Below, one piece after another: positions 8,723-43,532 of a stretch of 43,532 bases of DNA. Origin of the DNA: a virus (Duplodnaviria; Heunggongvirae; Uroviricota; Caudoviricetes); IMG/VR virus record IMGVR_UViG_3300024268_000012; one strand, given 5' to 3'. The position numbers and the translations under genes are program-made. Position 1 is the stretch's first letter, and every line of letters begins with the position of its first letter. The notes below the pieces were generated by a model. It saw only the letters and a program-made list of their open reading frames with translations, had not been told where the DNA came from and searched no databases.

Positions 8723-9883
8723 ATGATACTGACTGCTAAGCAAGAAGAAGGTCTTAAGATTGCGGTCAAGCGTTATAAGGACCACGAACCTTATACTTGT
8801 ATTGCTGGTTATGCCGGGACAGGTAAAAGCACACTTATTCGATTTATTATCAGTGCATTGAATATTGATCCTGATGATGTGTGTTATGTAGCCTATACCG
8901 GCAAAGCCGCGCAGGTTTTGCGTTCAAAAGGATGCCCGAATGCAATGACCGCACATAGATTACTATATAAATCTGTACAAAAGGATGATGGAACATTTGT
9001 TCATTTTCCGAAGCGTCCATTATTTCCTTTTGCTCTAATTGTTGTAGATGAAATTTCCATGCTACCAAAACCAATGTGGGAACTTTTATTATCTCATCGA
9101 ATTCATGTAATCGCTCTTGGTGATCCCGGTCAGCTTCCGCCTGTTATGGCTGAAAGTAATGGTGTGTTGGATACCCCGCATATTTTTCTGGATGAAGTTA
9201 TGCGACAGGCTGCCGAAAGTGAGATTATCCGTTTAACAATGGATATTCGTGCAGGAAAAGGTTTGACTCCTATGTTGGGCCAAGAGGTAAGAATTGTAGG
9301 GCGTGAAGAACTCCTACAACCTGGTTTTCTTGCATGGGGAGATCAGATTATTTGCGGTAAAAATGAAACCCGCAATCAAATTAATAGAGTAATGCGACAG
9401 ATCAAAATGAATACTGAAGGAATTGAACCTTTAGTAGGAGACCGAATTATCTGTCTGCATAATGAATGGGAATGTATAAATCTAACTGGTGATGCTCTTG
9501 TAAATGGTTTGAGTGGCACAATTACTGATTTGAAATATACAAATGATAACCCATTTATGGAGAAAACTCCCATCATCGACTTCCAGCCTGATATTGATGA
9601 CAGTGACACCTTTAGAGGATTAGAAGTCGATTATAAGCTTTTCACTGAACATGTGCCGACTGTGAACAAAGAAACCTTCAAGAAAATTCCTAAGTTCTAT
9701 CGACCCAAGGAGTTTGATTATGGATATTGCATTACTTGCCATAAAGCGCAAGGTAGCGAATATGATAAGGTTATTGTTCTTGAGGAATACTTGAGAGGTG
9801 AAAGCAAAGATGGTCATTCTCGTTGGCTTTATACTGCTGCTACTCGCGCTGCCAAGAAATTAATTATTGTGAGGAATTATTAA
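8723..9883 (+). CDS. Pif1/RecD/Dda-like SF1B DNA helicase
   Basis: Walker A 'GYAGTGKST', Walker B 'VVDEISML', and C-terminal 'CITCHKAQGSEYDKVIV' (UvrD_C_2-type motif). It follows promoter P3. Confidence 0.85.
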   Translation: MILTAKQEEGLKIAVKRYKDHEPYTCIAGYAGTGKSTLIRFIISALNIDPDDVCYVAYTGKAAQVLRSKGCPNAMTAHRLLYKSVQKDDGTFVHFPKRPLFPFALIVVDEISMLPKPMWELLLSHRIHVIALGDPGQLPPVMAESNGVLDTPHIFLDEVMRQAAESEIIRLTMDIRAGKGLTPMLGQEVRIVGREELLQPGFLAWGDQIICGKNETRNQINRVMRQIKMNTEGIEPLVGDRIICLHNEWECINLTGDALVNGLSGTITDLKYTNDNPFMEKTPIIDFQPDIDDSDTFRGLEVDYKLFTEHVPTVNKETFKKIPKFYRPKEFDYGYCITCHKAQGSEYDKVIVLEEYLRGESKDGHSRWLYTAATRAAKKLIIVRNY

Positions 9884-10632
9884 TGATTATGATCGCCGGC
9901 CCATGCGCCGTGGAAACTGCGACTGACACTTATAAAATCGCAGAGGAATTAAGTAAATATGATAAAAAAATCATTCTGCGTGGCGGTTGCTGGAAACCCC
10001 GCACTAGACCAGATTCCTTCCAGGGGCTCGGAGAGGTCGGCGTTGATATGCTTGTTGCTGCGTATGAATTATATGGACTACAAGGGTGCTGTTTAGAGGT
10101 AATGAGTAAAAAACATTTGGATTATGTTATTAATCATTATCCAGAAAAAAACATTATTCTTCAAATTGGCTCTCGTAATATGCAAAATTTTGAACTACTT
10201 AAATTAGTAAGTTCTTATTCTAAGGAATATGGTAATACAGTACTTCTAAAGCGAGGCTTTGGAAATACCGTTGATGAAATGTGTGGAGCGAGGGATTATT
10301 TACAGCATGACAATGTTATCTTATGTGAGCGTGGTATTAGGACTCTGTCTGATGCTAGTCGTTTCACTTTGGATTTGTCCGCCATCCCTGTGTTACAGCA
10401 AAAAACTGGGTGTCGAGTTATCGTGGACCCATCCCACGCTGCTGGAGAGAGAAGTCTGGTATCCGGATTGGCACGGGCTGGTATCGCCGCAGGAGCAGAT
10501 GGCTTGGAAATTGAGGTAAAATCAATGTTTGCCAAGTGTCCGCGTAAATGCGATGAAGCACAAGCTCTCCCCATAGATGAATTTTATGTTTTAGCACATG
10601 TGTGTGAAGATATTGACAAAATCTTAAAATAA
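9883..10632 (+). CDS. DAHP-synthase/KDO8P-synthase family (type I-beta) aldolase
   Basis: ATG overlaps the previous stop (TAATG). 'IAGPCAVET', 'RGGCWKPRTRPDSFQGLGEVG' and 'DPSHAAGERSLVSGLARAGIAAGADGLEIEV' match conserved DAHPS/KDO8PS motifs (GPCSVES; GGAFKPRTSPYSFQGLG; DPSH...GADGL.IEVH). Confidence 0.7.
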   Translation: MIMIAGPCAVETATDTYKIAEELSKYDKKIILRGGCWKPRTRPDSFQGLGEVGVDMLVAAYELYGLQGCCLEVMSKKHLDYVINHYPEKNIILQIGSRNMQNFELLKLVSSYSKEYGNTVLLKRGFGNTVDEMCGARDYLQHDNVILCERGIRTLSDASRFTLDLSAIPVLQQKTGCRVIVDPSHAAGERSLVSGLARAGIAAGADGLEIEVKSMFAKCPRKCDEAQALPIDEFYVLAHVCEDIDKILK

Positions 10633-10641
10633 TAATATAAG
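10613..10641 (+). promoter_or_regulatory. Sigma70-type promoter P6 (TTGACA-N17-TATAAG), inside the 3' end of the aldolase gene
   Basis: TTGACA 10613-10618, 17-nt spacer, TATAAG 10636-10641. Upstream of the DUF262 gene. Confidence 0.5.
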
Positions 10642-10652
10642 AGGTATATAGT

Positions 10653-11657
10653 ATGCAATATGCTGATAGCAAAAATTTATTTGACCAACTATCTGAAGAT
10701 TTTTCCAGAAAGTGTACAACAACTTCTCAGCCTATTAATTATCTAAAATTCTGTAATAACAATGGCCAAATTAATACTGATTTGGATATTCAGCGAGGTT
10801 ACCAATGGGATGAAAAACGTCAGCAAGAGATGTGGAACAGTTTGCTGCTTAATGCTCATATTCCTGAATTCCATGCATTAATCCGCAATGATATTTACGA
10901 CATTATTGATGGTAAACAGCGACTATTAACGATCTTTAAAATCATCAATGATGAAATTCCTCTGAAATACAGCTATGCAGGTCCCGAGCTGCACTGGCTT
11001 TTTACTCAAGGAAAAAATAAAGATGCTCTTGTCCGACAGATTAATTTTTCTTGTTTACCAAAGGAGTTGCAATATCGTATTTATAATACTACGATTTTGA
11101 TTACTACTTACTCTAATCTTGACAGAGATGAACAAATTATGCTCTTTAAAAAAATTAATAATGGTAAAGCATTAAGTGATTTTGCAAAAGGATTGTGCGA
11201 AAATTTCTTTATCCGCAAGGATGGTACTGCTGAAATGCTAAAGCATTCTGTGTTTAAAAATTCAGAATGGAAAGATGAAGAACAAGAGGCAATTGAGAAA
11301 GCGTTAGTTCGCTTTATGATTCTTAAGCATAAAAATATGGTAGTTTCTCTAGAACCCACAAAGATGATTAGTTACTATCCTGAATTTGATCGTGACGTAT
11401 TAAATTTGAGCGTTAAGCAAGTAAATGCTGTCTTAGATCGTATTCCCACTTTGCATAAAATTCTTAAATGCCGCGCTTGGGAATCTTATTTTCCAGCATT
11501 TTTAATAGTAGTTGATCGTCATCCTGAGCTTACAGCAGAACAAATTGACACCATGCTTGTAAAAATTCGTTCTTGTACTGCTGGGCGCGGAGCTGATTTA
11601 AGAGCCAGTATTGTTGCTGAACGCATCGACACTGTAGAATCTTTAATTGACAATTAA
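10653..11657 (+). CDS. DUF262 (ParB/Srx-like nuclease domain, GmrSD N-terminal-type) protein
   Basis: 'DIIDGKQRLLTIF' matches the DUF262 DGQQR-type motif. 334 aa, with own promoter P6 and RBS aagagg. Confidence 0.55.
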   Translation: MQYADSKNLFDQLSEDFSRKCTTTSQPINYLKFCNNNGQINTDLDIQRGYQWDEKRQQEMWNSLLLNAHIPEFHALIRNDIYDIIDGKQRLLTIFKIINDEIPLKYSYAGPELHWLFTQGKNKDALVRQINFSCLPKELQYRIYNTTILITTYSNLDRDEQIMLFKKINNGKALSDFAKGLCENFFIRKDGTAEMLKHSVFKNSEWKDEEQEAIEKALVRFMILKHKNMVVSLEPTKMISYYPEFDRDVLNLSVKQVNAVLDRIPTLHKILKCRAWESYFPAFLIVVDRHPELTAEQIDTMLVKIRSCTAGRGADLRASIVAERIDTVESLIDN

Positions 11658-18675: not shown

Positions 18676-19158
18676 ATGCGATATGCTAACGTAATTTGGA
18701 ATGACATTGTTGCCGGCGACGGTTTATGTGTGTCATTTTATACGCAAGGTTGTCCGCATCGGTGTCCGGGTTGTCATAACCCGGAGACCTGGGACTTTGA
18801 AGGAGGACAAGAATTCCCCGCATCCCTTTTGGACGACCTAATCCGAGGTCTTACCGCACAAGGTATTCAAAGACCCTTGTGCATCCTAGGCGGTGAACCG
18901 CTTTGTCCCGAGAATATTTTTCTTACTACACTATTAATTCGTACAGTGCGGGACAAGCTACCAGATACGCCTATATATGTGTGGACTGGTTATCTTTATG
19001 AAGATCTTCAAAAGATAGGTTCATCCCCACATTTATCATATATCCTTGATAACATTGACTATTTGATTGATGGCCCATATGATGCGACTAAGAGAAATAT
19101 TACTCTTGGTTTGCGTGGTAGCGAGAATCAGAGAGTTTTCAAGTTTGACAGAAAATAA
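18676..19158 (+). CDS. nrdG: Anaerobic RNR activating enzyme (radical SAM)
   Basis: 'GCPHRCPGCHNPETW' CxxxCxxC cluster, ~160 aa, immediately downstream of nrdD. Confidence 0.88.
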   Translation: MRYANVIWNDIVAGDGLCVSFYTQGCPHRCPGCHNPETWDFEGGQEFPASLLDDLIRGLTAQGIQRPLCILGGEPLCPENIFLTTLLIRTVRDKLPDTPIYVWTGYLYEDLQKIGSSPHLSYILDNIDYLIDGPYDATKRNITLGLRGSENQRVFKFDRK

Positions 19159-19173
19159 ATTTTATGATATAAT
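19145..19173 (+). promoter_or_regulatory. Sigma70-type promoter P5 (TTGACA-N17-TATAAT, extended TG)
   Basis: TTGACA 19145-19150, TATGATATAAT with TATAAT 19168-19173. Overlaps the end of nrdG. Confidence 0.7.
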
Positions 19174-19203: not shown

Positions 19204-19767
19204 ATGAAGGAAACACCTAATGCTATTTATATGGAGCCTGAAGAGTATGAGGCTTACTTAAAGGAGCAAGAGGAAAAGCAAGAAAAACTTAAGGCGTATT
19301 ATGAGTCCTTGAAAGAAGGTAATGATAATGTTGATGGTCCAAGTCTATATGAATTGAACCAGCAAATTATTGCAAAAATGCCTGCTCTGGACGGCGACGG
19401 GGTGCGCGATTGCTCTGGGAAAATTTTAAAGTGGTTGGACACACATCCCGATCCTTATTATATGCTCCTATGTAATGAGCTTAGTTATTACACTTTATTC
19501 CATATTACTTCTGCAAAGTATAATGCTGGCGGCAACTTGATGATTAGTCGAGGTGCAATGCGAGATTTAACAGATGAAATTCTTGATATTGTTGCTAATC
19601 TTGGTGATGTACGCGTTATTGAAGAAGATAATAATGGAGCAATTTCTGTGTGGAGTTCTCTCAAGCCCGCACATTATGAAGCACTATCTGATGAAGCTAA
19701 AGCAGAAGCTGACATCGTACATTGTTTCTATTTATTCCCATATGGAAGGGGAGTCGTTGAAGTATGA
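19204..19767 (+). CDS. Hypothetical protein
   Basis: 187-aa ORF after promoter P5 with RBS aaaaggagaa. No motif recognised. Confidence 0.5.
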   Translation: MKETPNAIYMEPEEYEAYLKEQEEKQEKLKAYYESLKEGNDNVDGPSLYELNQQIIAKMPALDGDGVRDCSGKILKWLDTHPDPYYMLLCNELSYYTLFHITSAKYNAGGNLMISRGAMRDLTDEILDIVANLGDVRVIEEDNNGAISVWSSLKPAHYEALSDEAKAEADIVHCFYLFPYGRGVVEV

Positions 19768-20025: not shown

Positions 20026-20256
20026 ATGAAGTATTTGCTGAATGTTGTTGAAACTTACCGTGTTGATACCGTAGAAGAGGCTCTGGCTATGCGCGATGAA
20101 ATGGCCGCAGCTCATGAATATGAACTTCAGTCTTTCCAGTATACTACCAAGTTTAATAAAAAGACTGAAGAAGAGTATCAGGTTGTAAAAGCTAAGAAGG
20201 TTATCAATAGTGAAAAGGAACCCAATTGTGGGGTAATGGTGCGATATGAATATTGA
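20026..20256 (+). CDS. Hypothetical protein
   Basis: 76-aa ORF with RBS ggaggaag. Its stop overlaps the next start. Confidence 0.45.
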   Translation: MKYLLNVVETYRVDTVEEALAMRDEMAAAHEYELQSFQYTTKFNKKTEEEYQVVKAKKVINSEKEPNCGVMVRYEY

Positions 20257-20836
20257 TGCGACTTTTGAAAAGATTAGTAAATATGCTGATGACAACTTGG
20301 TCGTCATCCCAACTCGCAAAACTGCCGAGTCAGCGGGGTACGACTTTTGTGCAGCAGAAGATACGATAATTCCTCCATTTGTTGAGATGGTCGAAGATGC
20401 AATGCTTGAGGATATTAACTCTCGCAAAGCGCAGTATGCCGATGTAAAAGAGTTTATGGCAGCTGAATACCCTTATACTCTCGACAAGATTGCGGCGATC
20501 ACTAAGCAGTATGATGCTAAGGTCGCTCTTGTGCCAACTGGTATTAAGTGTAAGATTCCGGGTGGTTATTATCTTCAGCTAAGTGTACGTAGTTCTTTGC
20601 CGCTTAAGCACTGGTTGATTCTGGGTAATGGTGTTGGTATCATCGACGCGGATTATTATAATAACCCAGATAATGAAGGACATATTTATTTCCAGATCAT
20701 TAATCTGTTACCGGTTCCCATTAAGATTCAGAAGGGTGAATGCTTCGGTCAGGGTGTTCTTCTTCCTTATGGTGTTGCTACTGGTGACAATGTAACCGCT
20801 ACTCGCGAGGGCGGATTCGGTTCTACCAATGGGTAA
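20246..20836 (+). CDS. dut: dUTPase / dCTP-deaminase family protein
   Basis: 'GVGIIDADYYNNPDNEGHIYFQIINL' resembles dUTPase motif 3 (G.IDxDYRG). The beta-jelly-roll family length (196 aa) fits. Confidence 0.7.
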   Translation: MNIDATFEKISKYADDNLVVIPTRKTAESAGYDFCAAEDTIIPPFVEMVEDAMLEDINSRKAQYADVKEFMAAEYPYTLDKIAAITKQYDAKVALVPTGIKCKIPGGYYLQLSVRSSLPLKHWLILGNGVGIIDADYYNNPDNEGHIYFQIINLLPVPIKIQKGECFGQGVLLPYGVATGDNVTATREGGFGSTNG

Positions 20837-21317
20837 GATTATATTAGCTTTAGATCAGGCCACTCGCGACAGCGGGTGGTCTATCTTTGATAATGGAGAA
20901 CTGATCGACTTCGGCCACTGGAGTTTCTCCCACGACGACGTAGCAATGCGTATCCATAGGCTTTGCTAGGAAATTGAGAAGAAAATTGAGGAATATGAAC
21001 CAGAGCTCATCGCTATTGAAAATATTTAGCTACAGTAGAACGTAGAGATGTTTCAAAAGCTAGCTTGGGTTCAAGGTGCTTTAATGCGCACCTGCGTTGC
21101 AAAAGGAGTTCCATATTAGTTAGTTCGTCCGTCCGAGTGGCGTGCGGAATGTGCTTTCCTTAAAGGCAATGATAAACATAGAGATAATCAAAAAAAAGTT
21201 GCGCAAACCTGGGTAATGGAAACCTTCGGTAAGAAATGTACGCAAGATGAATCGGATGCGATTTGTATTGGTTATGCTCTATCTAAACAAGAGGATAACA
21301 ATTGGGATTTTGAATGA
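20829..21317 (+). CDS. RuvC-like Holliday junction resolvase, read through 4 in-frame TAG codons (TAG recoded as sense, probably Gln)
   Basis: ATG overlaps the dut stop. 'KIILALDQATRDSGWSIF' is the RuvC/A22 N-terminal Asp motif and 'LIAIENI[TAG]L' is the catalytic Glu motif. The frame stays open to TGA at ~21315-21317 only if TAG at 4 positions is translated. No ORF is reported here by standard-code translation. Confidence 0.7.
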
Positions 21318-21382: not shown

Positions 21383-21904
21383 ATGGAGTATGATTTATTT
21401 GATTATTTCCTCAAATGGCTCATTCCATTCGTCTGTTCAGGTCTCTTCGCGGCAATCGTTATTCCAGTATGGAACAGATATAAGCATGGACGCGACGCAG
21501 AATTAAAAGACAAATGGAATGTATATGCACAAGAAACCAAGAATGATATTGAAGCATTCAAAATCGAATCCAAAAAGAAAGACGTTGAATTAGAAAAGAA
21601 AATTGTCGACGTCTAGACTGCACTGCTTGATAAGATCGAACAAAATACCGCTGGTATACGTCAGGCGATTTTGCAGTCTCATTTAAGAGAATTGATTATT
21701 GATGGTAAAATGTATCTAAAGAATGAATATATTACTCTTGAGCAATTGGCAGATTATGAGGAACGTTTCTTAACTTATAAGACACTAGGCGGTAACGGAC
21801 ATGTGGATCCATGGATCGCTAAAATTCGTCAATTGCCTAATACTCCTCCGGAGCAAGTGGAAGAAACCGATTTTTCCGCACGCTCTAAATATCATCATGT
21901 GTAA
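21383..21904 (+). CDS. Membrane protein with single N-terminal TM helix (holin-like), read through 1 TAG
   Basis: ORFs 21383..21616 and 21671..21904 are in the same frame, separated only by TAG at 21614-21616. N-terminal TM 'LIPFVCSGLFAAIVIPVW', RBS gagaaagggg, followed by a strong terminator. Confidence 0.55.
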
Positions 21905-21912
21905 AAAAAAAT

Positions 21913-21950
21913 AAGGGAGACTAGATATTTTATCTAGTCTCCCTATTTTT
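21913..21950. terminator. Strong bidirectional rho-independent terminator
   Basis: Perfect 13-bp stem GGGAGACTAGATA/TATCTAGTCTCCC with TTTT loop, flanked by A8 upstream and T9 downstream. It sits where + strand and - strand units converge. Confidence 0.8.
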
Positions 21951-22047: not shown

Positions 22048-22317
22048 TCATATTGACATTATAACTAAACATAGCAGCATGAACTATTGACCGTATTTCC
22101 TGCGGAAAGCCTAAAATTCAGTATCGAAGTCCTTACCTTGCTCGCGCATAAGGTTGCGGGCAATCTGTTCAATTTCTGCACTTCTATTGTTTTTGGCCAA
22201 GTTCAATAGATTTACTCCCATTGGAGTATTTTGCATACCCTGTAACAGATTCATCATTACTTGTTGCGGGTTCTAACCATTTTTAATCATACCGATAATC
22301 TAGTTCATCTGAACCAT
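22048..22317 (-). CDS. Small TAG-containing hypothetical protein (late)
   Basis: ATG at ~22317 preceded by gaggagggg. The frame is open to TGA at ~22048 if 4 TAG codons are read as sense. Protein MVQMN[Q]IIGMIKNG[Q]NPQQ... Confidence 0.45.
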
Positions 22318-22334: not shown

Positions 22335-22712
22335 TCAAAACTGGGATGCAACATCATTTAGCTATTGTTTAGTCTCCTTCGGTGGGATAATCATTTGATT
22401 CATTGCCATTTGAATTTGCTACATTGCCTATTCAAATTCTTCTCTAGTTATAAAATTTAAATTGGCTTCATTAGTAAGAGGAATATTTTTTAGTTCGTAT
22501 ACATTCAGCGCAGCCGTTCCATCCATATTGATTTGTTTAGTGTAAATTCGCTTATTAGCTAAGTCTGGAAAGTAAAACACTGAACCATCGAAGTCAATTG
22601 AGGCGCCTCTGACTTCATCGAGAGAGGAGACTGGTCTTCCCTTTAATGCCATAGAAACGGGTCGGGAAGCCGGCTATTGAGCCTAAAAATAATTTGGATA
22701 AGTTGGATACAT
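22335..22712 (-). CDS. Small TAG-containing hypothetical protein (late)
   Basis: ATG at ~22712 preceded by aagaggg, with a TATATAAT box ~40 nt upstream. The gene includes ORF-track 22428..22652 and continues through TAGs to TGA at ~22335. Confidence 0.5.
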
Positions 22713-26057: not shown

Positions 26058-26738
26058 TTAGTTTGCTGGTGGAGGTGGTGGAGGCGGGGGAGGATTACAT
26101 CCACACTCCTCGGGTTTACTTCCATTCCAATCAGAGTTTTTTGGCCCTTCCTCAGGCTTTACTAAACCAAGCGCAGTTAAATAAGTTTGAGAAAGGCGAA
26201 GAGAAGCAGGACGAGACTGACGCCAAGATCTGAGTTCTTTAACAATGCTAGAAGAAGCTTGCATTAATTCAAGATAACCAGCGCCCATTTGTGCCAATGT
26301 ATATGTTGGCGCAAGAGTGTCTTGAATCAAACCAATGCGCTGGGCAATAGTCTGACTACGTTCATCTTCTGGACCATTAGACAATTTAAAGTCTAAATAG
26401 TTACCAAATACAGAGCAATATTGATGAACAATCGCGCACCAGGCACTCATAAAATCATTCCAGGGAAGCTTATCCTCAGTAAGAATAAGAGTTGGAAATT
26501 CATGTTCAATACGAATGAACATGTCTAAAGTGTCCTGAGAAATTGTAAATGCACCATCGTCCTCTCCCGGTTCCCAAGCTGTGATGGCATCAATTTGCTC
26601 CAATACTCTAATCATAATTAATGAAAGTTGCGGCTGAATGGCTGTTAAAATACGACCAATAGGACCCAAAGTATCAATTTCTTTCATCACATGATAGCGG
26701 GCCTCGCCATAAGAAAAATTACGAATTTCAGTTAACAT
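26058..26738 (-). CDS. Hypothetical protein with C-terminal Cys-Gly-Cys + Pro9 tail, coupled to the rSAM enzyme
   Basis: 226 aa. The start overlaps the stop of the upstream rSAM gene by 11 nt. The C-terminus is '...KPEECGCNPPPPPPPPPAN'. Confidence 0.55.
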   Translation of the reverse strand: MLTEIRNFSYGEARYHVMKEIDTLGPIGRILTAIQPQLSLIMIRVLEQIDAITAWEPGEDDGAFTISQDTLDMFIRIEHEFPTLILTEDKLPWNDFMSAWCAIVHQYCSVFGNYLDFKLSNGPEDERSQTIAQRIGLIQDTLAPTYTLAQMGAGYLELMQASSSIVKELRSWRQSRPASLRLSQTYLTALGLVKPEEGPKNSDWNGSKPEECGCNPPPPPPPPPAN

Positions 26739-28116
26739 TTAACTCCGTTACCTCCTCAAGATATTTGAATTGCACTTTCTTTTCTTCAGACAAATCTCTC
26801 CAAACTACACTCCACACCCCATGTTCTTGTAGCCATTTCATTTCAGTATAAATCATAGCATGAGCTACTGCACATACAGTAGGAATTGGAGTAATTAAAT
26901 TACGAGTGCATTCATATTGAGCACCAAGACAGGTGCCAGTACATAATTCATTAATAGGACATTGCGCACAATGCGGCAAAGATGCTTTATGCATAGAATA
27001 TGTTGAAATTAACAATTCCGGATTGATGCATTCAAATTTCAAAATTTCTTTTTCATCAGGCACCAATTTACCATAATACATATCTTCATATCCTGTGCGG
27101 TGACATGGATACATCATTAAGTCACTTACACGTAATGTAAATTGGCTTTGAATACCGCAGGTAAGACCACGTCCACAAGTTGTTAAAGGCTGACTAAACA
27201 TATTAAAACCATTTGCTTTAACTAACCAGCCTGCCATAGCATATGGATCTTTATTAATTTTATTTTCCCATACCCAATCAAGAACAAATCTCATAAATTT
27301 ACACAAAGACTGAACTTGATCATAATTCCATTCTTCATTGCGGACATGCAATAAATACAGGCTCTCCCATGGGATATTGTGTTTTTCCATCATTTCTTGG
27401 AACCACAAGAAATTTTGAGGCCATGCATCAATATTTCTACTATATACCATTGGATGCAAGCCACCATGAATCATATGAGAAAATTGAAATGCACGATCAT
27501 AGTACTCGTCATCTCGCACACCACCACCCAAATCCACATCTAGATCATGTAGATAAGGACGATTGTCTTCCATATATTTTCCATCAAAACTCGCACTAAG
27601 ACCTAGAGTAATACCTATACTTTCGAATTTAGCATGAAGTTCTTTTACTCTTGCAGTTGCTTCTTCAGAACACACAAAAGTAAAATTAGTAGGAATTACA
27701 ATTTCAATTGGACGATATAAAGGATCTAAATCCTTAAAATGTTCATAAATAGTTTCTAATACTTTATATCCAACTTCTTGAGCTAATAATTCACCAGAGA
27801 AAATTTCAATGTTAGCGTTCCAATCATTATGAGTGTACCATTGTAAAATAGTTTTTAGATTTTCAATAGTACGCTCTTCGTTGAAACAATCTTCACTAAA
27901 AATCTTTTTGCGATGACGATGTAAATAACAATATCTACAACCTAAATTGCAACGCGGTGAAATAATTAACTCAATATTTTTCATTTTCTGATCTCTTGGG
28001 GTATCAATAGAGAAATCATCATAAAAATATTTCTCAATTACCCAAGCGCCCAATTCATGATTTTCTTTTTGATATTGAGACAAACCAGTATCATTTACAT
28101 TGCAATGCTCGGCCAT
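26728..28116 (-). CDS. Radical SAM enzyme with C-terminal SPASM-like Cys cluster (peptide/protein-modifying type)
   Basis: 'ISPRCNLGCRYCYL' CxxxCxxC. The C-terminal region has 'CHRTG...C...CAQCPINELCTGTCLGAQYEC', typical of SPASM auxiliary Fe-S clusters. 462 aa. Confidence 0.8.
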   Translation of the reverse strand: MAEHCNVNDTGLSQYQKENHELGAWVIEKYFYDDFSIDTPRDQKMKNIELIISPRCNLGCRYCYLHRHRKKIFSEDCFNEERTIENLKTILQWYTHNDWNANIEIFSGELLAQEVGYKVLETIYEHFKDLDPLYRPIEIVIPTNFTFVCSEEATARVKELHAKFESIGITLGLSASFDGKYMEDNRPYLHDLDVDLGGGVRDDEYYDRAFQFSHMIHGGLHPMVYSRNIDAWPQNFLWFQEMMEKHNIPWESLYLLHVRNEEWNYDQVQSLCKFMRFVLDWVWENKINKDPYAMAGWLVKANGFNMFSQPLTTCGRGLTCGIQSQFTLRVSDLMMYPCHRTGYEDMYYGKLVPDEKEILKFECINPELLISTYSMHKASLPHCAQCPINELCTGTCLGAQYECTRNLITPIPTVCAVAHAMIYTEMKWLQEHGVWSVVWRDLSEEKKVQFKYLEEVTELNVN

Positions 28117-29507
28117 GGTTTCATCGCTCCTCTATTTACTAAAATTTTATAATATCGCATCATTTCTTCCACAGCACCATTGCCTAATAAACGCAAATAA
28201 CTGCAAGGTACAATAGAAGGATTAGTTGTATAGTCTTCCTCAACGCCAATATGACAATATAATCCACAAGTCATCATAAACATTAATAAACGATCATCTT
28301 CATTATATGCATATTTACTGTTGATTTGTCCAGCGCAAGCCATTGTTACAGCCATTTGATCAAAGAAATATTTTCTAGACATAATATCGGCATGGAAAGA
28401 CATAGAACCATAAGTGCGTTTCATCCAAACCTTATCATTAGTATTCATATTACATCCACTTTGCATTGCATGCTTAGTCTTCATTTTTTCATCAAGAGCT
28501 GCATTACGACAGAGACGATTACAAGTATAAATATTTCCTTCATGATCAATAGTAATATTATTCTTACTAGCGGAACAAGAATAAGAATTTTCTTGTGTCG
28601 CAATAGGATTGCCAGCTTCTGCTTGGAAAAATACTTCAGGTCCATTAAATAATTGACCAAAAAGAGGGCGACCATCATAGCAAGGTTTATCTTGTACATT
28701 TACTCTCGGTAAAAAGCTAAGCCATTTTGCAAATGTCTCACCATCTTCTTGAGTATAATAGCCTGGGTCAACCAAAGTTGGGCAACCCGCAATTTGTAAA
28801 CTAATATTTTTTTTACCTTCAATTAATTTATCGCATTCAACTTGTAAATCATTGAAGAATTTATAATACCAGTTAAATGAATCAATTCCTCTCTCATTCA
28901 TAATTTTCATATAACTAACATCTAATGTAGCTTTAGTATTAATTACAAGAGAGAAATATTCCATATCTGCAGGACAACGAGTTAAAATTTCTTTCATAGT
29001 TTTAATTGTGCTCGCAGTCGCTCCAGGATGACGAGAATCATCATTAAATTCAGGTGGACCATCTAAAGACATTTGAAGATTAAAAGTGATTTTACGTTTG
29101 TGGTGAGTTGCATAAACCATCATTGGCAAGAAAAAATCTTCATAAATGCGATCGCCCAAAAGAGCATTAGTAGAAAACATTACATCTTTAGCATTTGGAT
29201 AATAGTCAAATAATGCTTCAAATGTTGCTCGCCAGTACTGACTATTAATTGTAGGTTCTGCGCCCCACAAACTTACATTTTCAATAGCATCACGGATGCC
29301 TGCGGTGACACGTTTAACATTTTCTACAAAAGTTCCATCTTCAAGTGCTTGACGAATATCTCTATTATAAGAAGCCATGCACTTTTTTTCTTTTTCAATA
29401 TAACAATATTTACATGCCATATTGCAATCTGATGACCAGTGTAGGCTGACGCTGGCTATATTAGCCAGCGCTTCGCCTAAATAATCAAGAGAAGGAATTT
29501 GTTTCAT
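28095..29507 (-). CDS. Radical SAM enzyme with C-terminal SPASM-like Cys cluster (second, paralogous maturase)
   Basis: 'SSDCNMACKYCYI' CxxxCxxC. Later 'CSASKNNITIDHEGNIYTCNRLC...GCNMN...CAGQ' and 'CGLYC' cysteines. 470 aa. Overlaps the downstream rSAM gene by 22 nt. RBS gaggag. Confidence 0.8.
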   Translation of the reverse strand: MKQIPSLDYLGEALANIASVSLHWSSDCNMACKYCYIEKEKKCMASYNRDIRQALEDGTFVENVKRVTAGIRDAIENVSLWGAEPTINSQYWRATFEALFDYYPNAKDVMFSTNALLGDRIYEDFFLPMMVYATHHKRKITFNLQMSLDGPPEFNDDSRHPGATASTIKTMKEILTRCPADMEYFSLVINTKATLDVSYMKIMNERGIDSFNWYYKFFNDLQVECDKLIEGKKNISLQIAGCPTLVDPGYYTQEDGETFAKWLSFLPRVNVQDKPCYDGRPLFGQLFNGPEVFFQAEAGNPIATQENSYSCSASKNNITIDHEGNIYTCNRLCRNAALDEKMKTKHAMQSGCNMNTNDKVWMKRTYGSMSFHADIMSRKYFFDQMAVTMACAGQINSKYAYNEDDRLLMFMMTCGLYCHIGVEEDYTTNPSIVPCSYLRLLGNGAVEEMMRYYKILVNRGAMKPWPSIAM

Positions 29508-29528: not shown

Positions 29529-31022
29529 TTAATTCGAGTAATTTCTTGAATAATAATTACTAGTATAATTACCAGTTTTATTGCCAGAATTATATGTAGA
29601 ATAGTTACCAGACTTATAAGTGGTATGATAACCTGTCTTATAGCTAGTATAATCCGCGGTATCATAACTATGATTGGTGCCATTATGAGAACTCTTGGCG
29701 CCACTGTCATTAGAAGAATAATAACTTCCATGATGGGAGGTATAATCCGCGCTATCATAGCTATAATTACTCGTTTTATAAGTTGTATAATGCGTTTTTG
29801 CGCTTGCATTATAACCACCATGATTACTTGTGTAATCTGCACTATCGTGAGAATATTTTCCACCATAGTGAGTAGTATAATTTGCGCCTTTTGCAGATGC
29901 ATTATAAGTAGCAAAATTGCTGCCATTATATCCGGCATAATGAGTGTACTTTCCACTGTTATATCCAGTATAATCTCCACCATTAGCAGATGCGTAATAT
30001 GAGCCTTTGTGCGTAGCATAGTTTGTGCTATGATAGGCATAATTACCACCATTGTGGACGGAATAATGTGCATTTGCTGTTGTATAATATCCGCCAAAAT
30101 TATTAGTATTATAAGAACTTAAGTGACCAACTTTTTCACTCTAATAATGTGTACTATTATGACCAGATTTATGTGTAATATAATATGTTTCATAATGAGC
30201 AGTATTTTGCCCAGTATAATGATTAACATAATAAGAAGTTTTTACTGTGGCATTATAATTAGTATAGTTTGCAGTATCATAAGTTACATAATGAGTAGTA
30301 TAATATGTGGCATTATTTGAAGTATTGTAGCCTGCATAATGGCTATATTTTTGCGCACCATTATGTGTATCAAATTCAGTACTAAATTGATTACCAAAAT
30401 GATCTGGACAATGTGAAGTATTATAAATTTGATAGTGCGTAGTATAATAATTAGTATAATACGCTTTATGGTTACTACTATAATCCGCAGACTTATGAAG
30501 ACGATTGCCCGTATAATAAGTTCCATGGAACTAATAATGAGCACTCTTATACGTTACATAATTTGTTGTATTATGTTCATAATTTCCACCAAAATAAGAA
30601 TAATAATGAGTACCATTATGAGTAGTATAATAATCTGCATAATGATTCGTATAATAACTTGCATTATGACCATATCGATGACTGTTAAAATACTCAGTAT
30701 AATAAGAATTATGCCAAGCTGTCCAGTTATTAATATCATATCCGGTATAATAATTTACTAAATGCCCTGTATAATAAGCATCATTATATCCAGATTTATG
30801 ACCTGATTTATAAGATGAAAGATGCCCGTTATAATATGTACCTTTTTCACCATTGTGATGGGTAGCATAATGTCCACTATAATGTGAACTTAAATGTCCG
30901 CTCAAGTGCCCTGAATAATATGCAGGGCAATGAGCAGCTTCTTGGGCCTAAATTGCAGTTAATGGATTATTTAAGTCAGAAGGAATAATTTTATTTCCTT
31001 TGACTGCTGTTGAAGTCGCCAT
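29529..31022 (-). CDS. Giant Tyr/His/Ser/Thr/Asn/Gly repeat protein B (putative rSAM substrate), read through ~3 TAG
   Basis: ATG at 31022 with RBS ggaggaa. The Y/H-rich frame (e.g. ORF 30531..30905 'GHLSSHYSGHYATHHNGEKGTYYNGHLSSYKSGH...') continues on both sides across TAG codons to TAA at ~29529, 20 nt before the rSAM start. Length is 1494 nt, divisible by 3. ORFs in other frames here are low-complexity artefacts. Confidence 0.65.
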
Positions 31023-31044: not shown

Positions 31045-32661
31045 TTAAGTTACAGTAACATTATGCGATTTATTACCAGCACGATAAGCGGTATAATTAG
31101 AAGTATTATAAGTGCCATAATTAGCAGTATAATAACCTGTCTTATAATTACTATGGTTACCACTATTATAACCACTCCAGTGAGAATTACGAGCAGCATT
31201 TTGACCACTATTATAAGAGCTATCATGTCCACTCTTATTACCTGAATAATGACCACTATTATATCCGCTCCAGTGAGAACGCTGTGCAGTTAAATTAGAG
31301 TTATTATATGTTGCATAGTTACCGCTTAAATGACTTGTATAATAACCACTATTATAACCACTCCAATGATTATTATAAGTGGAATAATTTGAACCATTAT
31401 GACTGGTGTAATGACCACTTAAATGTCCTGTATAATTACCATTATTTTCAGAGCTTCTATGAGAAGTATATACAGTCTTATTATGATTAGTGTAATGCGT
31501 AGCATAATAACCACTTAAATGCCCTGTATAATCACCTGCATTGTGAGATACATAATGAGCTCTATAACCAGTTTGATATCCCATATTATGACTAGAATAT
31601 CGTCCTGTATAATGAGTAGTATAATTATTACTATTATAAGTTGAATAATGATTATTTTTTCCTGTGTATTGAGCAGTATAATTAGAGCTTAAATAGCCAG
31701 AATTGTATCCAGTATAATTAGCTGCATCACGACTAGTGTATTGAGTACCATTATGCCCTGAATAATGCGTTTTTTGTCCTGCTTTATTTGTACTATTATA
31801 GGTCGAATAATGAGTTGTATAATTAGTAGTTTTTGCTCCACTATTATAGGTGGAATAATGAGAGCTTCTGTGAGCATAATCATATGTTTCAAAATGACTA
31901 TCATAAGCAACAGCACGGTGAGATTTTGCTCCAATATGATAAGTGGTATATTGAGTACCGTAATAGCCAGTATAATGACTATTTTGATTAGTATAATGAC
32001 TATAATAATAATTATTATAATTAGTACTCTTATAAGAACTATCATGTGAACTATAATAACCACTATAATATTCTGCATTATGACTTTCAAATTCTGCCGC
32101 TCTATGATAAAAATGACTTTTTTCAGTAGTATTGCGAGTTGTATAATGAGTTGCATAATAAGTAGCATTTCTACCGCTGTAATGTGGAGCAAAATACGTA
32201 TTATAATGAGCTTCACGATGAGCAGAATAATAAATACCACATGCTGCCCAGTTATCAAAATATTGCCAATTACTATGATGAGATCCATAGAAATCGGAAT
32301 TATGAGTTGTATAATAGCTACTATAATGACTACTCTTATAACTACTTTCTCTGCCGCTATAATATGTTGCATTATATGAAGTATATTGTGTTGCATAAAC
32401 CGTAGATTTATGCGCATTTAAATATCCTGCATTATAAGCGGCACAACCGTAATTGATAGAACCAGCTTGGCTATCAATAACATCCGATAATTCTTTAGGC
32501 GAATTATAATTTAATTTAGAATTATAAACTGCAATAGGATCATGTTGCCAATTATATTTGGCTAAACCCAATTTATCAGTTCTAAAATTATCAATTCGAT
32601 TTCGAACTAATAAATAATCAGAATATGCAGTTTTCTAACCCGTTGAAACTGGTACCGCCAT
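31045..32661 (-). CDS. Giant Tyr/His/Ser/Thr/Asn/Gly repeat protein A (putative rSAM substrate), one TAG at codon 9
   Basis: ATG at 32661 with RBS ggaggg. 'MAVPVSTG[TAG]KTAYSDYLLVRNRIDNFRTDK' continues into the ORF-track 508-aa ORF 31045..32571. About 538 aa, >85% S/T/N/G/Y/H. Repeats such as 'HWSGYNSGYYTSHLSGNYATYNNSN'. Confidence 0.7.
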
Positions 32662-40478: not shown

Positions 40479-43400
40479 TTAAGCTTGCATAATTTGGACA
40501 AGATTTGGATTAGCTGTAATATGAAGATCATAGTTAGTAATCCAATCATCTACATAGGAAAGAATTTCATCATATGAAGTACTGTTATTATCGTAAGTAA
40601 CAACAAAACTACTTAAAGATAAATATTCTTGAGAGCTTGCACCAAACATGGCATTTGTTGACAACCAAGTTAAAGCGTTTGCATTAATTGGTCTTTGAGC
40701 GGTGCCAAAATTAATAATAGACCAACCACAGTTTTGGAATGTCTTATTACCATAAGCAGCACCAAAATCTTCAATACCATCATTGTTAGTGTCTCCAAGA
40801 CTGTACTCATTATAAGGAACAGTAAGAACAACACAATCCTTATTTCGGCATGCATTTGCAAATGCACTATTGCCAAAATAGCTAACATTGTTAGTATTGT
40901 CAACCACTAAATTAGTACAATTTCTGAAGCAGAAAGTTCCAATAGTAGTTAGTGAGTCAGGGAAATCAACATGAACTAAGCTGGTTGCTTTATCAAATGC
41001 AAAATCATTAAATTTATAAATCTTACTTAAATTCTCTGCATTTTCTTGACAACCTAAGAAGAACACAGCGTACAGATCAGTATTTTGACACATACCATTA
41101 GATACAGAGCCTGTTGCAGAAGTACCTGCAGCAATTTCTAAGATCGGCCATTCGACACCTTGTTCATCAAATACGGTAATTGGGAAACAAACTTTTCCAC
41201 CAATGCCATAAGTAGGATCAAGACCAACAATAGCATAATTGCCAAGAACGGCGTCTGTTTTATAAGTAATATTTAAATACTGCTGATCAATTATATTGTC
41301 ATAAACACTACTTTCCATGTAAACCGCATAGAAGTTCATGTCGCTACCTGCTAAAATACGATTTAAATCGGTGGTGTCAGTAGAAGAAGTAAGAGAAGTA
41401 TGCCAACCAATAAATTTATAACAAGAAGTCAAAGCCAAAGAGGTGCTATCTCTTTGAGGAATTCTAGTAGGAGTAATAATTGGCTTACCAGCAGGAGTTT
41501 CAATTTCTTCAAACAAAGAGCCATCATAATTATAAAAGCTCATAGTATAACCATGCACTTTATATACTGCAACAACAGTTACGCGTCCACCATCAATAGC
41601 AGATAAGACGTGAGTATTTAATTCATTAGTTGCATAAAGTGTAACTTTATCATTATCGGTAATTACGGAATGTGCCGCTCTAAAATCAAATGTGCCATCT
41701 TCAATTGCCCAACCAACAAAGTCATAATGCAATCTAGAAGGTTCTTCTCCTTCGTAAACTACTGGGGACTCAGCATATCCATAAGGATACTTTAACCATC
41801 CAAGTGTCTTTTGAACACCTTCTGCATTATATTCAACAAAATGAACAGAATAAGCAGGATTTACTTTGTCACCAGTAATTTCAAGATCTGGATAAAGTGC
41901 ATTATAACGTTTCCACAAAGTATATTCGTCTAATGCATCTCCCTCTTCCTGATTGTTCACGTGCATACGACCAGTTAAGCCTGGAAGAATTTTAGTATTT
42001 GGTAAAAGTTCATTATAAGTTAAGAAAGAGCGGTAACGATAAGTATCAGTTTCCACAGTTGCGGTTTTATCCTCATACATATCTAAGAAAGCTGTTACAA
42101 TATCAAGATTTTTAATGACGTTTGTATCAAAAGCATCATCAAAAGTATAAATTACACCATCATTAAGTTTATTGATCCAGCCTTCCTCATAATAACCAGT
42201 AGCTCCGTTAGGATCATGGTATACTTCGTAAGTGGTTTGATTTTTTAATTCATAATACTTTGTTGCACGATCGAAAGATGTACCAATTTCAACTAATTTA
42301 TATGGAGACCATTCCACATCGGTAAAGTCACACTTTAAAATAGGTGTGGTATTTCCATCAGTAATAATGCCATTGTGTTTAGCTTCTTTTACTTTATATA
42401 AGTAATCTAACAAACGATAAGAATCAATACCCATTTTACTTCTGTCTAATACAAATGTCTCAATATTACAAGTTGTATTAGCATTAGGAGTAGTGGTATA
42501 TTTATCTGTTAAATTCTTAATATATAAACCAGTTGGAGTATTATCAATGGTTGGAGCTGTTTCTACAATACCCCTTAATTCAAGAGGTTGTTTCAAAACA
42601 AAGGAGGTAATTGTTTCTGGCAAGTACAAGGTCTTTAACAAGTTACCTTCAGTAAACTCGACAGAACTTAATTGTGTACCTGTTGCCATAAAAGTATTAA
42701 TTTTTTCAGCACCAGTTAATTGAAGAGAACCAGCCAACTTAGTTAAATTAGATAGGTCCATATATGTCAAAAGTCCTTTTGGACTTGTAGCAGTGATAGC
42801 CAAAGCATCAATAAATTTATCTGTGATACCATCATTGCGATAGCCATCTATCAAAGAACCAAGTGTGAAAGTACGCAAACGAATTGCTTGAGAATAGTCA
42901 ATTTCATTAAGGTACTTGTCACTTAAGTTGCCAAGATCCGCGATATATTCTGGACCGCGAATATAAGCCAACTGTTGAGACAATGGAACGCCATCGTCTA
43001 AGCGGTTTTTAATAGAAGATGGTGGGTCAATAAGAACAGGATCGTCTTGACCGGCAACATAAGGCTTAGGCGTGGTAGCAGTTTCATCATATACTACAGA
43101 TAGATACTGAGATAAGTATCCATGTAGATTGAATGATGCACTTGCCTGCAAACCTTCTACTAAGTTACCTTCTTCATCTTTAGTATCATCAGAAGTACGA
43201 GCAAGGTCGTTTGCATTATAACGCAATTTAATTTGCTTCTTAATAAATTCAGGATTATAAGAACCACCTAACCACTGAGAGTCAAGATAATTCAAACGAT
43301 TGCGGAAGAATGCTTGACGATTTAAAGTTCTATCACCTTGCAAGCAGTAGAAATAACCTTCAGTTTGAGAAATAGTTCCTTCTTGATCGGTATATCCTGT

Positions 43401-43532
43401 AGTTGCAGGAGAGATATATTTATAATCAGCGTCAATGTTCTTCATAATTTCGCTCCACTTGTCAGAACCATTGGTATTATAATGTTCATTAAGTGTATCG
43501 AGTTCAATCGCACCTTCATTGCGTAAGCCGCG
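40479..43532 (-). CDS. Large structural/adhesin-like protein with C-terminal BspA-type leucine-rich repeats (5' end beyond window)
   Basis: The 988-aa ORF is open upstream to the window edge (no stop in frame through 43532). The C-terminal region has LRR_5/BspA-like 'IGTFCFRNCTNLV...FGNSAFANACRN...FQNCGW' repeats. Genuine TAA stop at 40479. Confidence 0.7.
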   Translation of the reverse strand, partial: RGLRNEGAIELDTLNEHYNTNGSDKWSEIMKNIDADYKYISPATTGYTDQEGTISQTEGYFYCLQGDRTLNRQAFFRNRLNYLDSQWLGGSYNPEFIKKQIKLRYNANDLARTSDDTKDEEGNLVEGLQASASFNLHGYLSQYLSVVYDETATTPKPYVAGQDDPVLIDPPSSIKNRLDDGVPLSQQLAYIRGPEYIADLGNLSDKYLNEIDYSQAIRLRTFTLGSLIDGYRNDGITDKFIDALAITATSPKGLLTYMDLSNLTKLAGSLQLTGAEKINTFMATGTQLSSVEFTEGNLLKTLYLPETITSFVLKQPLELRGIVETAPTIDNTPTGLYIKNLTDKYTTTPNANTTCNIETFVLDRSKMGIDSYRLLDYLYKVKEAKHNGIITDGNTTPILKCDFTDVEWSPYKLVEIGTSFDRATKYYELKNQTTYEVYHDPNGATGYYEEGWINKLNDGVIYTFDDAFDTNVIKNLDIVTAFLDMYEDKTATVETDTYRYRSFLTYNELLPNTKILPGLTGRMHVNNQEEGDALDEYTLWKRYNALYPDLEITGDKVNPAYSVHFVEYNAEGVQKTLGWLKYPYGYAESPVVYEGEEPSRLHYDFVGWAIEDGTFDFRAAHSVITDNDKVTLYATNELNTHVLSAIDGGRVTVVAVYKVHGYTMSFYNYDGSLFEEIETPAGKPIITPTRIPQRDSTSLALTSCYKFIGWHTSLTSSTDTTDLNRILAGSDMNFYAVYMESSVYDNIIDQQYLNITYKTDAVLGNYAIVGLDPTYGIGGKVCFPITVFDEQGVEWPILEIAAGTSATGSVSNGMCQNTDLYAVFFLGCQENAENLSKIYKFNDFAFDKATSLVHVDFPDSLTTIGTFCFRNCTNLVVDNTNNVSYFGNSAFANACRNKDCVVLTVPYNEYSLGDTNNDGIEDFGAAYGNKTFQNCGWSIINFGTAQRPINANALTWLSTNAMFGASSQEYLSLSSFVVTYDNNSTSYDEILSYVDDWITNYDLHITANPNLVQIMQA

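Follow-up and report, generated by a model that had tools for sequence, protein, structure and literature searches.

A RuvC-family resolvase gene with four in-frame TAG codons at the boundary of the recoded part of a gut phage genome

A resolvase gene behind four stop codons

Can a gene that standard translation breaks into short pieces still encode a working nuclease, and how would it be read? The question is raised by nucleotides 20829–21317 (+ strand) of a 43,532-nt stretch of an uncultivated gut phage genome (IMG/VR record IMGVR_UViG_3300024268_000012), referred to here as the window. At this locus, one frame runs from an ATG through 162 sense codons to a TGA at 21315–21317, with no earlier TAA or TGA, when TAG is read as glutamine (Gln), and the read-through product is then MGKIILALDQATRDSGWSIF ... 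ICIGYALSKQEDNNWDFE. We conclude, with a probability of roughly 85%, that these nucleotides form a functional gene for a Holliday-junction resolvase of the RuvC family, in a phage that reads TAG as Gln (genetic code 15) in part of its genome.

The frame was present as quoted in the original prediction, which was made from the letters of the window without database searches and displayed three in-frame TAGs; these three are real, but the actual number is four, the one at codon 47 having fallen within an ellipsis. The TAGs occupy codons 47 (20967–20969, the first block under the standard code), 67 (21027–21029, in the motif IENIQ, three residues past the catalytic residue E64), 70 (21036–21038), and 97 (21117–21119), and the peptides covering the TAG sites read as Gln are LCQEIEK, ENIQLQQNVEMFQK, and GVPYQLVRPSEWR. 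Standard translation of the frame yields at most a 46-codon N-terminal fragment, and no open reading frame (ORF) of more than 46 aa exists in any frame within 20829–21317. A stop at TAG47 would leave a product lacking E64, D140, and D143, and any product longer than 46 residues is impossible unless TAG is decoded first. An interval of 174 codons free of TAA and TGA, as found here, is expected about 0.5 times per window by an estimate from stop frequencies and is thus only moderately unlikely. Since the open frame is weak by composition alone, its significance is taken from a family match that spans all four TAGs.

Protein family, catalytic residues, and fold

The product with TAG read as Gln matched the Pfam RuvC profile (PF02075) with 39.9 bits (E = 5e-10; gathering cut-off, 22.2 bits) over profile positions 1–144 of 148, and the score was still 37.1 bits (E = 3.7e-9) with an X at each of the four TAG positions. 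The best PHROG match was likewise a RuvC-like Holliday junction resolvase (PHROG 159/827, E = 1.6e-21). Among 226 RuvC homologues found, 57 were aligned, giving 21 invariant columns, and the profile of these 57 matched Escherichia coli RuvC (1HJR) with E = 1.9e-6. In the profile alignment with 1HJR, residues D9, E64, D140, and D143 correspond to D7, E66, D138, and D141 of the E. coli enzyme. D9 (codon at 20853–20855), E64 (21018–21020), and D140 are invariant among the 57 homologues, and D143 is conserved in at least 90% of them; the last two residues belong to a D-E-S-D motif encoded at 21246–21257. Both the assignment to RuvC and the Asp and Glu catalytic motifs read by eye in the original prediction are thus borne out by the profile search on the read-through translation.

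The structure was modelled with AlphaFold2 for a protein 98% identical to that of the window (P0001), with a mean predicted local distance difference test (pLDDT) score of 87.7. In Foldseek searches, the 12 best PDB matches of this model were all RuvC, with template modelling (TM) scores of 0.70–0.81, led by 6LW3, 4LD0, 7W8D, and 1HJR (TM 0.76–0.81); RuvC of Lactococcus phage bIL67 (4KTW) came after these four in the ranking. The solved RuvC structures of E. coli (1HJR), Thermus thermophilus (4LD0), Pseudomonas aeruginosa (6LW3), and phage bIL67 (4KTW) are similar in length to the window protein (~160 aa), and the bacterial and phage structures share with it the RNase-H-like fold (TM 0.68–0.81 to the P0001 model) and the placement of the D-E-D-D tetrad, although sequence identity is only 15–21%. 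The complete RuvC catalytic tetrad and fold are therefore present in the sequence and the model. RuvC enzymes are homodimers that nick four-way junctions symmetrically, and the window protein is predicted to cut junctions.

The alternative family named in the original prediction, poxvirus A22, was not upheld. At E ≤ 1, Pfam searches returned only RuvC and a non-significant GPW_gp25 match, with none to Pox_A22. Fowlpox A22 (6P7B) has the RuvC/RNase-H superfamily fold and a junction-resolving role in common with the window protein, but its fold match to the P0001 model is weaker (TM 0.60, rank 16). The protein is a member of the bacterial and phage RuvC family and not of A22. It differs from bacterial RuvC in that no RuvA or RuvB partner is encoded in the window. 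In addition, the position of Phe69 in E. coli RuvC, an aromatic residue important in junction cleavage, is an invariant Gln in the phage family, encoded in the window by codon 67, itself a TAG. The phage family thus appears, from the alignment, to use another residue at this site.

Selection on the gene

A gene with four in-frame stops in the standard code, in a phage whose host presumably uses that code, could also be a decaying pseudogene that was inactivated by nonsense mutations and is no longer expressed. Comparison with two close relatives from independent assemblies, L001 (Logan SRR14307659) and L003 (ENA ERZ988043), speaks strongly against such decay. Their RuvC proteins are 98% identical to that of the window, and the genes differ from it by 35–38 synonymous (38 for L001) and 3 non-synonymous changes, giving a ratio of non-synonymous to synonymous substitution rates (dN/dS) of 0.013–0.015 (0.013 for L001), with differences along the whole gene including the part downstream of the TAGs. 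Against a more distant relative, L004 (72% identity), dN/dS is 0.07. TAG47 and TAG67 are found in both L001 and L003. No frameshift and no TAA or TGA interrupting the frame occurred in the relatives examined, and all relatives with at least 48% identity retain the full-length frame, in which 2–9 TAGs occupy positions that mostly differ between them. The catalytic residues do not vary, and TAG alone among the stop codons is affected, with its occurrence confined to the late part of the genome. The gene is under strong purifying selection over its whole length, and the selection test effectively refutes the pseudogene explanation, to which we give hardly any credence.

The amino acid encoded by TAG

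The residue inserted at TAG was judged by comparing codons at the DNA level. The residues that databases show at TAG positions were set aside as evidence because they are circular; the close homologues have already been translated with TAG as Gln. In the five close relatives (at least 72% identity) compared by codon, TAG47 is TAG throughout, and in distant relatives this column is variable (N, Q, K, or H). The other three TAGs alternate with Gln codons. TAG67 is replaced by CAA in L004–L006 and in the standard-code Enterococcus phage VRE9_3; TAG70 by CAG in L001 and L003 and by CAA in L004 and VRE9_3; and TAG97 by CAA in L001 and CAG in L003. Conversely, Gln10, which is invariant in the family, is CAG in the window, CAA in VRE9_3, and TAG in L004 and L008. 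In 52 pairs of orthologous genes from the window and five relatives, TAG stood opposite a codon other than TAG 71 times; this was CAA or CAG in 28 cases, followed by codons for Glu (8) and Lys (6).

A wider comparison used 80 relatives from a scan of IMG/VR, where the relatives number 464; after deduplication, 42 sequences without an in-frame stop served as the standard-code reference. Codon 67 is Gln in all 42. Two columns of conserved Gln hold 12 and 11 TAGs in sequences of the TAG lineage, in contrast to 2 TAGs altogether in the 33 other conserved columns. The residue that fits TAG in these comparisons is Gln, and inspection of the residues at the TAG positions, made in answer to a conservation check proposed in the original prediction, supports the same assignment.

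Another amino acid (Glu, Lys, Tyr, or pyrrolysine) would also make TAG a sense codon, and one result speaks for this and against Gln: Codetta-style log-odds for the TAG columns, computed against distant standard-code relatives (36–43% identical), did not separate Gln from Glu and slightly favoured Glu. In addition, one relative, L091, has a TAG in the column of the invariant catalytic Glu. Because the log-odds are ambiguous, the Gln assignment rests on the close relatives and the conserved columns. There, the 98%-identical proteins exchange TAG only with CAA or CAG, and both the clustering of 23 TAGs in conserved-Gln columns and the unanimous Gln at codon 67 argue against any other residue, as do the phage TAG reassignments characterized so far, all of which are to Gln (PMC9523058; PMC10607447). 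A non-Gln meaning of TAG in the window is therefore very improbable.

The L091 locus (IMGVR_UViG_3300031994_000011, 172 kb; RuvC at 10001–10444) is itself unusual. It reads FIGL[TAG]NIQLQ at the catalytic position, where all 42 standard-code relatives have Glu, and it is very heavily recoded, with 124 TAGs within the 10 kb downstream of RuvC. An inactive resolvase, another meaning of TAG in this lineage, or an error are all possible.

Two coding regimes in the window

The resolvase gene stands at the border between two parts of the window that differ in codon use. The 21 genes for replication and nucleotide metabolism at 97–20836 (+) contain no TAG in 6,744 codons, and none of them is terminated by TAG. 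They encode AAA_24, DnaB-type helicase, RecJ, SF1 helicase, Gmk, NrdD, NrdG, and dUTPase as well as a DnaE-type polymerase of 1,284 aa, and the replication genes are SPbeta-like and Enterococcus-phage-like. RuvC is the first TAG-containing gene after these 21, and the numbers of TAG to CAA/CAG codons are 0 to 230 in the early genes versus 25 to 200 from RuvC onward (Fisher's exact test, p = 1e-8). The original prediction called this gene the cleanest diagnostic of recoding, which is a fair description, as it has the highest TAG density among the annotated genes of the window (4 of its 12 Gln codons); recoding is also evident in the endolysin and a tail-fibre gene.

The gene immediately upstream encodes dUTPase (20246–20836, +; Pfam PF00692, E = 1.6e-16), contains no TAG, and ends with TAA. 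As predicted, its stop overlaps the RuvC start, and the 8-nt overlap (20829–20836) reads ATGGGTAA, which suggests translational coupling. A perfect match to the sigma-70 consensus (TTGACA, 17 nt, TATAAT, with TG) at 19145–19173 (+), ahead of the gene at 19204, is likely the promoter of a unit that ends with dUTPase, RuvC, and a gene for a 173-aa protein with one in-frame TAG (21383–21904, +). RuvC appears to be the fifth gene of this candidate unit, the first four of which are TAG-free. Beyond the last gene, a 14-bp palindromic hairpin with T-runs on both strands (21914–21944) is likely a bidirectional terminator separating the + strand unit from a convergent lysis and structural block on the − strand. 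Another hairpin, 11 bp long and GC-rich, lies at 20857–20882 (+), 28 nt inside the RuvC coding sequence; it may affect reinitiation after the dUTPase stop, or it may be due to chance.

The convergent late block (22048–43532, −) encodes a holin (PHROG 13712, E = 9e-32), an endolysin with SpoIID, SH3, and peptidoglycan-binding domains, a pair of radical-SAM proteins, and repeat and fibre-like proteins. In-frame TAGs occur in 8 of its 17 called genes, with 3 in the endolysin and 1–5 in each of the recoded genes other than RuvC, including that for the fibre-like protein. Two small ORFs between the candidate terminator and the holin gene, at 22048–22317 and 22335–22712 (−), surpass everything else in the window in TAG density (4 of 89 and 5 of 125 codons, respectively), and the second has only a weak PHROG match, of unknown function.

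The agent that decodes TAG

If TAG is read as Gln, something must deliver the amino acid. Leaky near-cognate readthrough is implausible as the source of the protein since four TAGs lie in series; at a few per cent per codon, the estimated yield would be below 1e-5. Searches for a dedicated suppressor tRNA gave results that count against the reading of a phage that recodes TAG by its own means: no tRNA of any kind was detected in the window (ARAGORN; Rfam), and none was detected by ARAGORN in 72 loci of related phages, searched up to 10 kb from RuvC. In the phage's own genome, the sequence reached from the window ends outward extended over positions 1–53.7 kb of a 168-kb contig. A generic scan of IMG/VR for a CTA anticodon with a T-arm pattern had no RuvC relative among the matches listed. 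Some recoded phages lack a suppressor tRNA (PMC10607447). By analogy with other code-15 phages, we infer that a suppressor tRNA is located outside the window.

The missing tRNA would also be expected if the host itself read TAG as Gln, with neither a switch in decoding nor a phage-borne suppressor. No bacterium is known to use code 15. The 21 early genes are difficult to reconcile with such a host, as they avoid TAG within their reading frames and at their ends alike, beside 230 CAA/CAG codons, and this avoidance is expected only if the genes must be read correctly in two decoding states. Moreover, standard-code translation is what has been found in the hosts of recoded phages studied to date (10.1101/2021.08.26.457843). 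A recoded host is accordingly very improbable.

The boundary in related phages

Exact copies of window proteins were found on contigs of 168,127 bp (ENA ERZ27248446 k141_1065152) and 167,964 bp (ERZ27248314 k141_1461088), and the window is thus part of a phage genome of ~168 kb. Relatives whose RuvC identity is as low as 48% retain the overlap of dUTPase and RuvC, which is 8 nt long in L004–L006 and 20 nt in L007 and L008. In 25 loci of the TAG lineage, the share of Gln-type codons that are TAG rises from 6% (2.3 TAGs per 1000 codons) over the 10 kb before RuvC to 35% (25.2 per 1000) in RuvC itself and is 27% (11.4 per 1000) over the 10 kb after it. The boundary between a TAG-poor and a TAG-rich region at RuvC is conserved in these 25 relatives.

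Among the 80 IMG/VR relatives, RuvC contains 1–9 TAGs in 37 and none in 41. The RuvC genes of L094 (3249–3698) and L096 (1633–2082) have no TAG and instead contain three in-frame TGAs, in columns where standard-code relatives have Trp or Tyr; judged from these columns, a TGA-to-Trp lineage within this phage group has recoded RuvC as well. Counted by stop codon in RuvC, the group therefore holds TAG-recoded, TGA-recoded, and standard-code members.

A possible translational timer

What the TAGs in RuvC would mean for the infection cycle can be outlined on the basis of work on code-15 phages (10.1101/2021.08.26.457843; PMC10607447) and proteomics of crAss-like phages (PMC9523058). A phage-encoded, Gln-charged amber suppressor tRNA would accumulate during infection and switch decoding, as in other code-15 phages. 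Before it builds up, host release factor 1 would terminate translation at codon 47 and leave an inactive fragment of 46 residues. RuvC would be co-transcribed and translationally coupled with the standard-code dUTPase, and because the two would share a transcript and ribosome flow, the TAGs would make the resolvase appear later than the other products of the operon. A junction-cutting nuclease would be kept back in this way until late infection, when branched replication and recombination intermediates would need to be resolved before packaging. Such a late role suits phage biology in general: in phages T4 and T7, endonuclease VII and endonuclease I, respectively, resolve branched DNA before packaging. 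RuvC is a candidate in point, as a nuclease whose early production would plausibly do harm.

The ambers of RuvC may accordingly be a selected translational timer, placed on a nuclease that is coupled to early nucleotide-metabolism genes, which has arisen repeatedly. Repeated origin is suggested by the TAG lineages, with 1–9 TAGs at shifting positions, and by the two TGA-recoded relatives, with three TGAs each. This proposal is tentative and, in our estimate, falls short of even odds. If it is true, recoding would act as a gene-by-gene post-transcriptional switch inside operons, beyond being a module-wide feature of late genes.

Several observations weigh against it. The promoter and terminator that would delimit the RuvC unit are consensus matches only, the excess of TAG in RuvC (4 of 12) over the remaining late genes (21 of 213) is marginal (p = 0.03), and the RuvC homologue of phage phAss-1, a member of the "Caudoviricetes code 15 clade", has no TAG, so gating of this gene is not universal. 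The last two points also suit a different explanation, in which TAG does encode Gln and the TAGs of RuvC, without any regulatory function, reflect neutral C-to-T drift in genes that are translated after the suppressor is active. Under drift, TAG positions would be free to change, and between relatives they turn over fast and fall mostly at variable or Gln sites; TAG-free RuvC genes in about half of the IMG/VR relatives are consistent with the same explanation. Neutral drift accounts less readily for the fact that RuvC, although apparently coupled within an otherwise TAG-free unit, exceeds the rest of the locus in TAG density in 25 relatives and has also been recoded in two relatives with TGA. 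We regard neutrality as a serious possibility that is nonetheless doubtful on present evidence. Even under neutrality, the TAGs would force synthesis of RuvC to depend on the suppressor, so that a gate exists mechanistically in either case.

Comparison with known phages

Code-15 phages of the gut (Agate, crAss-like, and Lak) have recoded late and lysis genes beside standard-code replication genes, and suppressor tRNAs have been reported for them (bioRxiv 10.1101/2021.08.26.457843). In crAss-like phages, the reading of TAG as Gln has been proven by proteomics (PMC9523058). The window phage shares with these phages an origin in gut metagenomes, the concentration of TAG in late, lysis, and structural genes, replication genes compatible with the standard code, and early genes that lack TAG both internally and as a terminator; it differs in showing no suppressor tRNA within the window. 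The Agate clade has TAG-recoded, TGA-recoded, and standard-code members and genomes of 154 ± 27 kb (10.1101/2021.08.26.457843). The window phage, at ~168 kb, is within this size range and its relatives show a similar mix of codes, but this likeness is circumstantial.

No nucleotide-level match of the window was found in GenBank phages. The nearest GenBank relatives of the RuvC protein are from Enterococcus phages (38% identity) and phAss-1 (31%). The latter carries three tRNA-Sup-CTA genes and is related to Enterococcus phage EF1 (PMC10607447); it has a DnaE-type polymerase and the kinship to EF1 in common with the window phage, but its RuvC is distant and, as noted above, free of TAG. In Enterococcus phages VRE9_3, EF1, and H1 (~138–142 kb), the resolvase is 38% identical over 95% of the protein, and the order of polymerase, guanylate kinase, dUTPase, resolvase, and convergent block is the same as in the window. 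These phages use the standard code and have CAA where the window has TAG67 and TAG70.

That gut phages reassign TAG to Gln, and do so above all in late genes, is already established, and the window phage is a new, uncatalogued example of both; what is known of recoding in principle is unchanged by its RuvC gene. Literature searches returned no paper linking resolvase genes to stop-codon reassignment, and in the searchable literature no description was found of a resolvase placed exactly at a recoding boundary and recoded consistently and heavily inside an otherwise standard-code unit. The position of the resolvase at the boundary is a modest refinement and not a new principle. The run of 21 TAG-free genes followed, in the same apparent operon, by a gene in which a third of the Gln codons are TAG offers a compact example of the idea that recoding serves timing. 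In annotation, gene callers using the standard code split RuvC into fragments of at most 46 aa and deal poorly with the entire late half of the genome. RuvC is a short and well-understood enzyme, one of whose invariant Gln residues is encoded by TAG, and it lends itself as a marker when translation table 15 is to be selected for this phage group.

Other genes of the window

Several genes that surround this locus are unusual in their own right. Within the replication module, 9883–11657 (+) encodes a protein of the DAHP-synthase family (PF00793, E = 7e-45) and a GmrSD_N (DUF262) protein. The GmrSD_N domain is usually found in type IV restriction enzymes, and the two proteins are unexpected passengers among replication genes.

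In the late block, two radical-SAM/SPASM proteins (26728–28116 and 28095–29507, −) show a weak NCBIfam likeness to the peptide maturases PapB, the cyclophane-forming YhhB, and HxsB (His-Xaa-Ser), with all matches of both proteins below the family cut-offs. They adjoin two proteins of ~500 aa each (29529–31022 and 31045–32661, −) that consist almost entirely of Tyr/His/Ser/Asn/Thr/Gly repeats, mostly as Y/H-x-S/T/G triplets, with a Tyr/His/Phe/Trp content of 28–30%, almost all of it Tyr and His. Judged from sequence, the arrangement resembles a triceptide or His-Xaa-Ser-like cross-linking system with very large putative substrates, which would be unusual in a phage late module. Finally, 40479–43532 (−), which runs off the end of the window, encodes the C-terminal portion of a very large putative host-binding or virion protein (2,437 aa) that has BspA-type leucine-rich repeats.

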